Notes: generated by a model from the letters alone, not told the origin. Numbered from the stretch's first letter, positions 38,617-48,307 are shown. The stretch: 64,000 bases of DNA from Nitrosopumilaceae archaeon (GCA_965207375.1 CBDBMG010000002.1:608001-672000), one strand, 5' to 3'. Numbers and translations are program-made.

Positions 38617-39665
38617 TCATTAAGTACGGTAGTACTTAATAGTAGGGATTGGTAAGAAATTGTACGGCTTCCAGAAAATTTCGTGCTTTAAAAATCAACC
38701 TTGCAATAGGCTTTACCCGAAAAAACCAGCTGGAATGCATTGGTAAGGCTGTAATGATGCTGTACCTTGGTTAAACGAAACGATAAGTCGAATATTTCGA
38801 CCTACAGCCAACTTTGAAAATTTCGAAATTCATCTGTATTTCGTCTGCCAGCCTGCCTGCCTGCCTGCCGTAAGACTGGGTTGCGCTAGGTGTAGGACTC
38901 CAGAAATTTCACACAATAAAGGTAATGGCAGCAGATTTACGAAAATGTTATTCCGAAGATGACTTACCCACTGCGCCATGGCGATTCCCTTTATCCTTCA
39001 TTCCTTTCCTTGTTCTTCTTTATTCCTTAGCAGGGTGCAAATCTCACCAAAGGTGACGATAGCCTGTAATGGCTTCTGCTTATCACGTCACACAAAAACC
39101 TGGCTTGCACATGATATAATCAGTTTAATACAATGGCACGATGTTTTCACATGAACTTCGAGATTATAGCCTTGGACAAATAGCTTTTGTATTTTTCGAG
39201 CGTTATTTGCTATCAGACTGCTATCACACAGCTGCTTTGTCATGTAAGCGTGTTGTTAATAAGCGCCTGTAAACAAGCATAATTATTACTTAAGCACCTG
39301 TAACATTTTGTGCGCCTGCCGAAAGATTATTACGAATGCTTAGCATGTACAAAAAGCAAACAAACTAGAATGATAAAAAATTTAAAATTTAAAAGGTAAG
39401 TAGGGATTGAATTCAATAGTGCTACAAAAAGTAAGGAAAGATTTTGAGACGAGAGAACATACTGGCATGAGATAGCTAATTTATAAAAGTTTAATTCCTA
39501 CTTTTGGCAAACCTATGAGCCAAAAGTAGGGATTAAATTTTTATAAATTAGCTATCTCATGCCAGTATGTTCTCTCGTCCCAAAATCTTATTCCTTGTTT
39601 CCTTACTTTTTGTAGCACTATTGAATTCAATCCCTACTTACCTTTTAAATTTTTTATCATTCTAG
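38617..39665 (+). mobile_element. Helitron-like non-autonomous element with large 3' palindrome, copy A
   Basis: a|tc start, 9-bp hairpin attaagtac-ggta-gtacttaat, (gcct)n microsatellite, palindrome 39365-39665, ctag|t end. Confidence 0.8.
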
Positions 39666-39708
39666 TATATATATATATATATATATATATATATATATAT
39701 ATATATAT
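39666..39708. repeat. (TA)n microsatellite
   Basis: Direct inspection. Confidence 0.95.
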
Positions 39709-39730
39709 GTGTGCTCTATGTATAATCCTA

Positions 39731-40245
39731 CTAGAATGATAAAAATTAAAAATTCAAAGGTAAGTAGGGATTGAATTCAATAGTGCTACAAAAAGTAAGG
39801 AAACAAGGAATAAGATTTTGGGATGAGAACATTCTGGCATGAGATAATTTATAAAAGTTTAATCCCTACTTTTGGCAAATCTACTGAAGTGAGCCAAAAG
39901 TAGGGATTAAACTTTTATAAATTATCTCATGCCAGAATGTTCTCATCCTAAATCTTATTCCTTGTTTCCTTACTTTTTGTAGCACTACTGAATTCCTACT
40001 TACCTCTTAAATTTTTAATTTTTTATCATTCTAGTTTGTTTGCTTTTTATACATGCTAAGCATTCATAATAATCTTCACACAAAATCTTACATGCGCTTG
40101 TTAACAACGCGCTTACATGGCAAAGCAGCTGTGTGACAGCAAATAACGCTCGAAAAACAGCAAAACCTATTTGTGCAAGGCTATAATCTCAAAGTTCATG
40201 GTGTAATAGCGAAAAGAAAACATCATGCCACTGTAACTAATTATA
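39731..40245 (-). mobile_element. Same family, copy B (5'-truncated, opposite strand)
   Basis: Palindrome 39731-40034 followed by the reverse complement of the element body. Confidence 0.8.
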
Positions 40246-41508
40246 TTAAGGTGTAATAAAGTACTACAAAATATCCGGGTCTGACCCGGACTCTGCACAT
40301 GCGATATTAATGGTGTCGAATTAAGTGTGCCTGAGGGCAACGATATCACAATATCTCCTCAAGATATTTCGAGATGGGTGACTATACATTGGTATTAGAG
40401 GGATTGACTGTATAATTAGAGTATTTTGATGGCGTCCGCTGCGCACTTCGAAAGTTTGTTTATAAAATTAAAATATACTGCTTTTCAGTGATCACTTGTT
40501 GGGAATTAGGATATGATTAGGATTAATGCCGCATGAAAATGTTACACAGGTCATCCAGTAGGGCCCACGCCCAGTTTATGCATGCAAGAAAGCCGAGAAT
40601 ACTATAGATCCTTAACTGTATGGTTAAGGATCTATGAGAATACATACGAATAAAGCTGTGTTTGGTTAATATATAGCCTGCATCTACATGCTGTAACGCA
40701 GAACCAATTAGTAGTGCCCAGAATGTAAGTTTCAGCACACGCCTCTACTTTAATTAAACCGGGCCACATCCGGGTCTGACCCAGATTACTATCCGGGTCA
40801 GTGATGCTGACCCGGTTTCAACCCTGCTCTCTATAGCTTTTCTCAGGGATTGATGGTCTCCTGCTCGAATAGGATTTAAGTCGAGGTTTCAGCAACTTTG
40901 AAAAGTTTGGTAGTAAAGTTACTCTAAACCCTTATTCTTCGCTTATTTCAGTTGTTTAGTCTAAAGGTTCTTACTTGGCTTAAATATTCTATACCCAGAA
41001 TTTATAAGATATAGCTAGCTAGCTAAACTCAGACATACCTATATACGTACATACGTACGATTGCAGTAGTCTCGGCAGTAAGTGATGACTTTCATCAAAA
41101 AGCTCTAACGCTCAACAGTTGCAAACTTAAAGACAAGTATTTATACACTCGCACATCGCTGTGTTCCTTCCTTTGTGAAATTGTTTAGTCCAAAGGTTAC
41201 TAGACGTCCTAAATCATCCCATCTATCACTTCATTTTATTAAAAGAACTACAGCTCGCTCCAAATACAGCTCAAAACAATTTGTTGTGTTAAAAGAAATT
41301 TTGGTCGCCACCATCCCTACCATCTTAATTTGTTTAATCCAAAGAATTTATAAATATTTGTAATTCCAATGTAAATGTATTCTTTCAACAAAACTTTCGC
41401 TGTAATTACACCCTCTGAAATTTCCTTGTTACAAACTTTTGCCTTCATCTTCTTGTTATAGCTATATATTCCTGTTTATGACCATGGGTAACTTGCATAC
41501 AAAGCTTA

Positions 41509-45547: not shown

Positions 45548-46843
45548 TCATTAAGTGCGGCAGTACTTAATAGTAGGGATTGGTAAGAAATTGTACGGCT
45601 TCTGGAAAATTTTGCGCTTTAAAAATCAACCTTGCAATAGGCTTTACCCAAAAAAACCAGCTGGAATGCATTGGTAAGGCTGTAATGATGCTGTACCTTG
45701 GTTAAACGAAACGACAAGTCGAATATTTCGACCTACAGACTACTTTGAAAATTTCGAAATTCACCTGTATTTCGTCTGACAGCCAGCCAGCCAGCCTGCC
45801 GTAAGACCGGGTTGCGCTAGGTGTAGGGCTCCAGAGATTTCACACAATAAAGGTAATGGCGGCAGATTTACAAAAATGTTATTCCGAAGACGATTTACCC
45901 ATTGCGCCATGGCGATTCCCTTTATCCTTCATTCCTTTCCTTGTTCTTTATGTATTCCTTAGCAAGGTGCGAATGTCACCGAAGGTGACGATAGCCTGTA
46001 ACGGCTTCTGCTTATTGCGTCACACAAAAACCTGGCTTGCACATGATATAATTAGTTACAGTGGCAGTAACCTTTGCTGTTTTTCGAGCATTATTTGCTA
46101 TCACACAGCTGCTTTGCCATGTAACTGCGTTGTTAACAAGCGCCTGTAAACAAGCATAATTATTACGTAAGCGCCTGTAAAAAGATTATTATGAATGCTT
46201 AGCATGTATAAAAAGTAAACAAACTAGAATGATAAAAAATATAATTAGTTACAGTGGCACGATGTTTTCGCTGTTTTCGCGTACTTTATCATAGCTGTTT
46301 TTCGAGCGTTATTTGCTATCACACAGCTGCTTTGCCATGTAAGTTCGTTGTTAACAAGCGCCTGTAAACAAGCATAATTATTACATAAGCGCCTGCTGAA
46401 AGATTATTATGAATGCTTAGCATGTATAAAAAGTAAACAAACTAGAATGATAAAAAATTAAAAATTTAAAAGGTAAGTAGGGATTGAATTTGGATTCAAT
46501 AGTGCTACAAAAAGTAAAGAAACAAGGAATAAGATTTTGGGACGAGAGAACATTCTGGCATGAGATAATTTATAAAAGTTTAATCCCTACTTTTGGTTCA
46601 CTTCAGGTTTGCCAAAAGTAGGGATTAAACTTTTATAAATTATCTCATGCCAGAATGTTCAAATCTTATACCTACTTTTGGCAAACCTGAAGTGAGCCAA
46701 AAGTAGGGTTTATAAATTATCTCATGCTAAAATGTTCTCTCATCCCAAAATCTTATTCCTTGTTTCCTTACTTTTTGTAGCACTATTGAATCCAAATTCA
46801 ATCCCTACTTACCTTTTAAATTTTTAATTTTTTATCATTCTAG
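45548..46843 (+). mobile_element. Same family, copy D, nested in copy E, with a double-loop palindrome
   Basis: gata|tc...ctag|taatta restores gatataatta of the host copy; palindrome 46442-46843. Confidence 0.82.
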
Positions 46844-47020
46844 TAATTATTATAGCCTTGGCCAAATAGCTGTTGCTGTTTTTCAAGCTTTATTTGCTAT
46901 CACAAGCTGCTTTGCCATGTAAGCGTGTTGTTAACAAGCACCTGTAAACAAGCATAATTATTATGTAAGCACCTGTAACATTTTGCGCCTGCTAAAAGAT
47001 TATGAATGCTTAGCATATAT

Positions 47021-47655
47021 AACAAGTTGATGTATTACCATCTAAAAACCAGGCGCTTTGTGTAAGTTAAACCACTGTTAATCTACTGTTATTCAATGTA
47101 TTGTAATAGCCCTTAATGACGTCACCAGTAAGTCACATGAGCAGAGACTCATCACTAAGGAACACGAAGCAACGCATGCGAATTTAATTCTTCTGTTTAA
47201 ACCTGCTTTGTACTCCAGTACTTTAGTGATAAAACTTTTTGAAAGTAGTATAAAGTTGAAATTCGTACTGTAACACTATAGGCCAGTCTTCTTTTATAAG
47301 GTTCGCAACCCGCACGGCACACCCACTTATAAAACTAAAGCCCTCCGTCTTGTTAGTAATGTACAACTGGTTAAACGGCTTTTACCGTGTAATGGGTGGC
47401 AAATAGAGCATTACCTTGCTCTTCTTTGGAAGTAACACACGACACGCTACGTTACTAAGGCCCCGCCCATCAACAGTATCGATGGCAAGTGCCGTACAGA
47501 GAAACTGAAAGGCAGTAGGACTCGTTTGGTTGGTTATTCAAACTTCCTTTCATATGAATAGTTTTTAATAGCCCGGGGGGTGGACACATACACACGCATA
47601 CCAACGTCCGCACCATATCAATTTTAAGAAACCAGGCACGTGCATGGTTTAAAAA
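47021..47655 (-). mobile_element. Helentron-associated (DINE-1/HINE-like) element, copy 1
   Basis: Homologous to 62027-62814; aaaccagg subterminal repeats; inserted in an A/T run of copy E. Confidence 0.75.
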
Positions 47656-48307
47656 GCAAATAAACTAGAATGATAAAGAATTTAAAAATTCAAAGGTAAG
47701 TAGGGATTGAATTCAATGGTGCTACAAAAAGTAAAGAAACAAGGTAAGATTTTGGGATGAGAGAACATTCTGGCATGAGATAATTTATAAAAGTTTATCC
47801 CTACTTTTGGCAAACCTACTACTGAAGTGAGCCAAAGTAGGGATTAACCTTTTATAAATTATCTCATGCCAGAATGTTCTCTTGTCCCAAAATATTATCC
47901 CTTGTTTCCTTACTTTTTGTAGCACTATTGAATTCAATCCCTACTTACCTTTAATTTTTTATTATTCTAGTTATAATGGTAATTGCAGTATTTCAATATG
48001 GAAATATGGCCATTCCCATCTTGGAAATATTGCCATTGCCACCTGGAAACTATAATGGCAATTGTAGTATTTCAACAATGGTAATTGGGACAGTAGGATA
48101 GTAATTGTAGTAATCCTATGGAAATACTACAAATAATATTACATGTGTACGTACGTAAATAACTATACACACCTGGACACACATACCAAAGAGAACTGAT
48201 GATATGATCACATAATTATATATAATATGTACATATGTACATACATACAGTGTATAATATAATATATATATACACAAGTCTCAAATGTACGTATACTTAA
48301 AAAGGTT

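Follow-up and report, generated by a model that had tools for sequence, protein, structure and literature searches.

The window analysed here, a stretch of 64,000 nucleotides, is C3:608001-672000, part of contig C3 in a four-contig assembly that bears the name of a Nitrosopumilaceae archaeon (GCA_965207375.1). Between 38.6 and 48.0 kb it holds five nested or adjacent copies of a ~1.1-kb non-autonomous Helitron, together with a separate 5' fragment of the same family (Table 1). Where the 3' end of such a copy is complete, it consists of a 300-330-nt palindrome (arms 140-156 nt), which has CTAG on either side and reaches the terminal CTAG of the element. Across the family the loop of this palindrome occurs in both orientations, and its two arms have changed in mirror image.

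The assignment of the copies to the Helitrons follows from their ends and their insertion sites. Among 45 5' ends, TC stands first in 43 and A comes before the end in 41, and 54 motif hits went into an alignment of the 5' region; all 29 intact outer 3' ends close with CTAG, the next base being T in 28 of them. Moreover, two empty sites can be rebuilt from within the window. Copy D2 lies in D1 exactly at gatA|TAATTA, which copy C has unbroken, and D1 interrupts a satellite at cttggaA|Ttataatgg, continuous in the neighbouring units, in both cases without any duplication of the target. In other words, as the initial annotation had supposed in calling the family Helitron-like, these are non-autonomous Helitrons with 5'-TC and 3'-CTAG termini, whose insertion falls between A and T and leaves the target unduplicated. 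Tracts of (TA)n are favoured targets, which accounts for the two pairs of copies that lie tail to tail across such tracts (A/B in the window, and C3:437798/438123). These pairs were also considered as possible products of a giant-palindrome event, a reading rejected because the partners of C3:437798/438123 are 98.5% and 98.75% identical to other copies and only 94.5% identical to each other.

The family shares with the canonical Helitrons (Helitron1/HLE1, e.g. Helraiser, reconstructed from bats) the TC/CTRR ends, A|T insertion without duplication, a 3' hairpin by the cleavage site, large numbers of non-autonomous copies, a preference for AT-rich or (TA)n targets and nested insertions. Its termini agree with the canonical ones (PMC4067079 and PMC11417382) except in the 3' hairpin. 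The canonical hairpin (PMC4067079) measures 16-20 nt and lies about 11 nt from the end, whereas its counterpart here is about 15 times as long, a ~330-nt palindrome with 155-nt arms that takes the terminal CTAG into its stem. Also different are the concerted evolution of the arms, the random orientation of the loop and an 11/12-nt inverted repeat that links the 5' end with the outer 3' arm, in which TAGTAGGGATTG (5' nt 24-35) pairs at 11 of its 12 positions with CAATCCCTACTTA, a stretch of the long palindrome at a distance of 32 nt from the 3' end. The 5' end has an 8-bp hairpin of its own (TTAAGTAC ggta GTACTTAA), and its motif AGTAGGGATT is present again in both palindrome arms. With the Helentrons (HLE2, including HINEs and DINE-1), as PMC4067079 describes them, the family has in common a microsatellite in the body, a palindrome at the 3' end, a high copy number and perhaps the subterminal inverted repeats; those elements, however, insert between T and T and have palindromes of 5-10 bp and subterminal inverted repeats of 12-15 bp, in contrast to the A|T insertion and TC/CTAG ends seen here.

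As single-stranded DNA the palindrome of copy C is predicted to fold with -157 kcal/mol, against -31 +/- 3.8 kcal/mol for 100 shuffled sequences (z = -33.7). Since the palindrome runs to the very last base, the hairpin and the CTAG|T termination signal are present on both strands; its inner edge reads CTAG|A on the transposed strand and CTAG|T on the bottom strand. The initial annotation had described, at intact 3' ends, a CTAG-bounded palindrome with arms of ~145 bp, far beyond the canonical hairpin in length, and this description stands, both in the measurements and in the places where the palindromes were found. It had, though, counted as a separate copy, E, what is in fact the 3' end of D1, split off from the rest of that copy by an unrelated ~630-nt repeat.

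Loop orientation was read after each palindrome had been oriented by its body, F denoting GCAAACCT...GAAGTGAGC and f the reverse complement. The 30 intact main-family palindromes of contigs C2-C4, with loops of 14-24 nt, divide into 15 F and 15 f, one of the F calls being ambiguous because that loop has itself turned palindromic. Outside this count stand D2, whose centre is composite, a duplicate locus, and five or more palindromes that have decayed, an F-type loop being retained in three. The equality of the two forms is that which had been anticipated if the loop flip-flops, and the reading of the loops of A and 'E' in one direction and those of B and C as the reverse complement is borne out in element orientation.

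The two forms do not sort by descent. On a tree of 200 nt of body and both arms, with the loop excluded (28 of the 30 rows), there are 12 changes of orientation compared with a mean of 9.5 for shuffled labels, 496 of 500 shuffles coming out as low, and the sole strongly supported clade holds three f copies and one F. When the tree is built from the body only, for the 21 of the 30 rows in which the body runs unbroken for 440 nt or more, the changes number 8 and the mean for shuffled labels is 7.0. Likewise, identical loop variants are found both ways round, the 24-nt variant twice as F and twice as f, the 17-nt variant three times as F and three to four times as f, and two bodies that are 99.0% identical (C2_232101 and C3_65733) carry opposite loops. 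Both forms occur in a subfamily of about 75% identity whose loop measures 29 nt (four versus two unique insertions), among the three orientable copies of a third subfamily, with a loop of ~41 nt, and in one other sequence record, where one copy is f and another F (L047 and L048). Inversion of the loop is thus recurrent. A single ancient inversion that gave rise to two subfamilies would tie orientation to subfamily; since both orientations recur across the tree, the loop variants, the near-identical bodies, the subfamilies and the other records, with no more clustering on the 28 rows than for shuffled labels, this is excluded. Nor is an artefact of assembly at all credible as the source of the palindromes, as the structure is present at more than 45 loci and in three further independently assembled records. 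Nothing was seen that speaks for either of these two explanations, by which the initial annotation's proposal would have fallen.

The arms have a pattern of their own. In an alignment of all 60 arms, variants common to several copies are for the most part present twice in a palindrome, once in each arm: of the 12 copies with the most frequent substitution (column 40, A>G), 11 have it twice, and a C variant at column 62 and a 7-nt deletion, which lie in gappy columns and were kept out of the substitution count, are likewise doubled in most of their carriers. Private substitutions, on the other hand, are confined to one arm in 57 cases and shared by both in one. The arms are complementary at 140 of 140 positions in C2_121613, from a diverged subfamily, and in L046, from another host, yet are only about 80-84% identical to the main-family arm; in C2_121613 the mirrored differences amount to 12 substitutions and 17 indel positions. 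In C3_734226, half of the loop is mirrored too. The arms have therefore evolved in mirror image at the level of the lineage. Once inserted, copies decay in situ, at least five having lost the loop and inner arm or acquired an insertion in the loop. Private mutations number 0.0117 per site in the body and 0.0059 per nucleotide in the arms, and there are 0.027 mismatches per arm pair, from alignments that differ in depth; the last figure is close to what the body rate would lead one to expect, a comparison that is only indicative.

One type of event can account for both of these features. According to PMC8604942, inter-strand template switching at inverted repeats homogenises the arms and reversibly inverts the spacer, and does so preferentially where arms are long; the expression 'loop inversion' is found in PMC8794818. 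We infer that template switching of this kind is the agent of the flips and of the mirrored arms, and that it is coupled to transposition, acting mainly in the transposing lineage; in our estimation this account has about as much chance of being right as of being wrong. The usual short 3' Helitron hairpin would have been expanded to a ~330-nt palindrome reaching the last base, which the single-stranded or rolling-circle phase of transposition would expose. A nascent strand that had copied one arm might then re-anneal to the identical arm of the other strand, possibly the displaced one, copy the loop backwards and afterwards make the second arm off the first, such that a single event inverts the spacer and mirrors the arms. 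Perfect stems may in addition be favoured for termination or for second-strand priming. The events are placed mainly in the transposing lineage because symmetry follows lineages, inserted copies decay and a duplicated locus has kept its loop. The template-switch mutations already described at inverted repeats (the Ripley model; surveys in yeast and primates) are alike in arm homogenisation, reversible spacer inversion and the advantage of long arms (PMC8604942); they differ in that they affect ordinary loci, with arms of some 10-20 bp that only a few bases separate, where here arms of 155 nt and spacers of 14-41 nt lie inside the termination signal of a transposon in dozens of copies. Large palindromes of the kind found on sex chromosomes undergo arm-to-arm gene conversion and have polymorphic spacer inversions. 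They resemble the present family in this concerted evolution of arms and in the inversion polymorphism, but are single loci of kilobases to megabases that are kept in place, whereas here symmetry tracks the transposing lineage and the inserted copies decay.

Several points weigh against this account. On a looser count the symmetric single-copy variants number 6-7 rather than one, and the statistics on timing are weak; the one-arm private changes, small in number, have no clear gradient along the arm, with 19 in the inner ~50 columns and 20 in the outer ~55. Only one duplicated locus is informative, and the fact that it has the same orientation and loop after about 4% flank divergence yields a likelihood ratio no higher than about 2. 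On the body tree, a single clade of the four copies with the 24-nt loop is rejected (approximately unbiased test, p-AU 0.0014), albeit for a group picked after pairwise identities had been seen. Palindromes and bodies would then have partly separate histories, to which exchange between copies contributes, and such exchange alone could deliver loops in either register. Finally, the host genome is sampled by 2.14 Mb only, and the mechanism proposed is drawn from comparison of integrated copies.

The nearest rival holds that inserted palindromes invert their spacers where they stand, by ordinary replication or arm-to-arm recombination and independently of transposition. The template-switch mechanism acts at any inverted repeat (PMC8604942), an orientation that is random with respect to phylogeny is predicted on this basis as well, and the composite centre of D2, with other rearranged centres, demonstrates that inserted palindromes do rearrange. 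To randomise copies that are no more than 1% apart, however, most copies would need an event after insertion, which should have converted or erased private mutations of the arms; these are nonetheless overwhelmingly one-sided, even on the looser count, and are no sparser near the loop than further out. The constancy of the duplicated locus points, weakly, in the same direction, and flipping in situ is accordingly judged unlikely. Less likely again is exchange between copies as the whole explanation, in which a break or stalled synthesis is repaired from another copy, the donor being readable in either register because its arms are reverse complements. It gains from the discordance of loop and arm variants with bodies, as in the rejected 24-nt group and in C4_262748, whose body is 98.5% identical to that of C3_437798, a copy with a different loop and arm variant. 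Against this, exchange yields no mirror-image arms unless the donors are already symmetric, chimeric Helitrons can arise in transposition as well, and the group tested was chosen post hoc.

Hairpin transfer can account for the flip of the loop but not for the symmetry of the arms, whose asymmetries it swaps and yet keeps. This bears on the explanation put forward in the initial annotation, in which HUH nicking followed by hairpin transfer, as in parvoviruses, turns flip into flop at each round: Rep would nick the inner edge of the folded palindrome, and the hairpin would be unfolded and copied. Like the hairpins of parvoviruses and adeno-associated virus (AAV), the palindrome is terminal, associated with an HUH nuclease and found in two inverse loop forms of about equal frequency; it ends exactly at the 3' terminal base, where the 3'-OH would be base-paired after cleavage and could self-prime, its inner edge is also CTAG, and this genome has an unrelated Rep/helicase element whose terminal palindrome, of 361 nt, likewise extends to the last base. 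In the viruses, though, the whole hairpin is inverted with its asymmetries, at both ends of a linear genome. The copies visible here are integrated, their arm asymmetries have been erased at lineage level, and no co-inversion of arm markers with the loop is detected: when shared one-arm variants are compared with the loop, 32 pairs fit co-inversion and 45 do not, a comparison of low power since the symmetry of lineage variants leaves few markers. Furthermore, the inner edge on the transposed strand is not in the CTAG|T context of cleavage, and the long hairpin is at one end only. In the open full-text literature, one general review was all that was found to bring rolling hairpins and Helitrons together. 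Hairpin transfer therefore appears improbable. No better a prospect is offered by a combined scheme, in which the base-paired 3'-OH would prime synthesis after cleavage and Rep would either resolve the hairpin in parvovirus fashion or use the signal on either strand, to give a perfect palindrome and a random loop at every jump. Hardly conceivable, lastly, is that the palindrome is an independent foldback or miniature inverted-repeat transposable element (MITE) with a target duplication of its own, lodged in a Helitron body. The CTAG on both sides can be read as a 4-bp duplication, but in every palindrome with both ends intact the body tail (..ataaaaagtaaacaaa) adjoins one side and never both, the flank opposite being unrelated and beginning with T in 28 of 29, so that an independent element of this kind, which the initial annotation had raised against its own proposal, is excluded. 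The one-sided tail also holds in diverged subfamilies and other assemblies; of the seeming solo palindromes, 'E' is the end of D1 and C3:122218 is a rearranged remnant.

With respect to earlier work, no description either of loop flip-flop in Helitrons or of Helitron terminal palindromes of this size was found in the main texts of the open full-text literature. What is new, then, is a Helitron with canonical ends and a hugely expanded, self-symmetrising and loop-flipping terminator. Helitron termination is thought to depend on the short hairpin by CTRR. That arms of 155 bp with the loop in either orientation are tolerated indicates that it is the stem, not the loop, which is read. The mirrored arms constitute a built-in record of the fate of the DNA as the element transposes. 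Should symmetrisation and flipping indeed be tied to the jump, the family would be a ready reporter of the single-stranded stage through which eukaryotic rolling-circle elements pass, as well as a large collection of natural cases of template switching at long palindromes. Were hairpin transfer to prove true, it would make a mechanistic link between Helitrons and parvoviruses, and if there is a self-priming or rolling-hairpin phase, the second element with its 361-nt palindrome would suggest a habit of the whole lineage.

That second element belongs to a small set of Rep/helicase (RepHel) loci, of which four, marked by matches to the Pfam families Helitron_like_N and PIF1, lie in contigs C2-C4 (Table 1) and one in another record. 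Neither the 5' end nor the palindrome of the present family flanks any of the four loci, within the 2.14 Mb of host DNA, or the one in the other record; long elements with the same termini and a Rep/helicase gene, which the initial annotation had suggested looking for, are thus absent from these five. DUF6570, encoded by the intact-looking element on C3, is a marker of HLE2 according to PMC11417382. The palindrome of this element (TCTCAATC...GATTGAGA|T), which runs to its last base and is unrelated to that of the present family, is found in two different contexts, and the Helitron-like elements of this host may therefore tend to have long terminal palindromes. More than 20 loci have the 40-nt ends of this palindrome in inverted pairs, with about 400 nt between them; these may be short derivatives. 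Near the locus on C4, 3.4 kb downstream on the same strand, are fragmentary arms akin to the family palindrome (about 77% identity).

Table 1. Family copies in the window (positions counted from its first nucleotide) and Rep/helicase loci in the assembly (contig positions)
Feature	Position	Strand	Remarks
Copy A, full length	38617..39665	+	5'-TCATTAAGT...; (GCCT/GCCA)n in body; followed by (TA)n tract
Copy A, palindrome	39365-39665		Loop 39509-39518 (aaacctatga), F form
Copy B	39731..40246	-	Tail-to-tail with A over (TA)n tract; body broken off at family position ~502 by a different insertion
Copy B, palindrome	39731-40034		Loop 39877-39892, f form in element orientation
Copy C, full length, reference	41673..42754	+	
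Copy C, palindrome	42426-42754		Arms 154/156 nt; loop 42581-42596, f form
Copy D1, 5' part	44977..45547	+	Target is A/T of satellite unit; additional ~140-nt insert at 45154-45296
Copy D2	45548..46843	+	Nested in D1; body internally duplicated
Copy D2, palindrome	46441-46843		Rearranged centre with both loop forms: 46597-46611 f, 46683-46695 F
Copy D1, middle part	46844..47022	+	Family positions ~574-753
Unrelated ~630-nt interspersed repeat, outside family	47023..47652	.	Inserted in D1 just upstream of D1 palindrome; about 60 copies in C2-C4
Copy D1, 3' end ('copy E' of the initial annotation)	~47653..47970	+	Last ~12 nt of body and palindrome
Copy D1, 3' palindrome	47665-47970		Loop 47812-47830, F form; satellite unit resumes after 47970
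Additional 5' fragment	50429..50726	+	Family positions 7-314; 91% identity to C
Intact-looking Rep/helicase element	C3:311471-319217 (L043 region to 321386)		Helitron_like_N, DUF6570, PIF1, C-terminal ubiquitin-hydrolase (UCH)
Second copy of C3 Rep/helicase element	C2:183267-189340		96% identity over 5.8 kb
Rep/helicase locus	C2:422404-426107		Truncated family copy nearby, another repeat in between
Third Rep/helicase locus	C4:378836-385674 (L044)		OTU protease open reading frame

The distribution of the repeat bears on the origin of the DNA itself. Contig C1 (2.16 Mb) contains no copy, and contigs C2-C4 (2.14 Mb, 37% G+C) contain 66 loci similar to it. Because satellites, Rep/helicase genes and other transposons are also present there, C2-C4 are taken to be eukaryotic DNA binned with the archaeon; the assembly is rated a 99.95%-complete prokaryote despite these 2.14 Mb of eukaryote-like DNA. 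Eight further loci, at 72-94% identity (L046-L053), lie in host-like stretches of three other, independently assembled prokaryotic records, which are titled as metagenome-assembled genome chromosomes or contigs of Anaplasmataceae, Poribacteria and Binatia; host DNA has apparently been binned with, or joined into, the genomes of symbionts. A small fraction of the words of the repeat is present in one RNA run that bears the label sponge metagenome, and a 23-mer from the inner arm had no match in a metagenome scan. From the RNA run and the host-like stretches of the other records, the host of the eukaryotic DNA is probably a sponge. Eukaryotic host DNA is in this way flagged inside several published prokaryotic genome bins.

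Several minor features of the copies and their surroundings may be added. Within D2, at 46073-46290, a body segment ends 21 nt into a palindrome, and there another body segment follows on, from family position ~502; this looks like a copy stripped of nearly its whole palindrome. A length-variable (GCCT/GCCA)n microsatellite is present in the body of every copy (38838-38870, 41902-41939 and 45781-45797), and a similar GCCT/GCCA-type tract lies inside the palindrome loop of one genomic copy (C2:419800-419833). At the body site gatA|TAATTAG (family position ~500), or within 1-2 bases of it, three different insertions are found, namely D2 (~45545), the RepHel element (C3:321386) and the element that interrupts B (40246); the family itself thus contains a hot spot for insertions. 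The satellite that supplies the target and empty-site reference of D1 is a tandem array of ~60-nt units (..ggaaatacagccattccc..) at 44540-44976 and 47971-48110. Between copies C and D1, two further inverted structures occur, neither of which has a second copy in the assembly: a pair of 43-nt inverted repeats separated by 140 nt, at 43092-43317 (taccgtaaaaccggaaactttgac..), made of short direct repeats, and a separate near-perfect palindrome at 43356-43514, with 66-nt arms that are 95% complementary, a 27-nt spacer and a G+C-rich centre.

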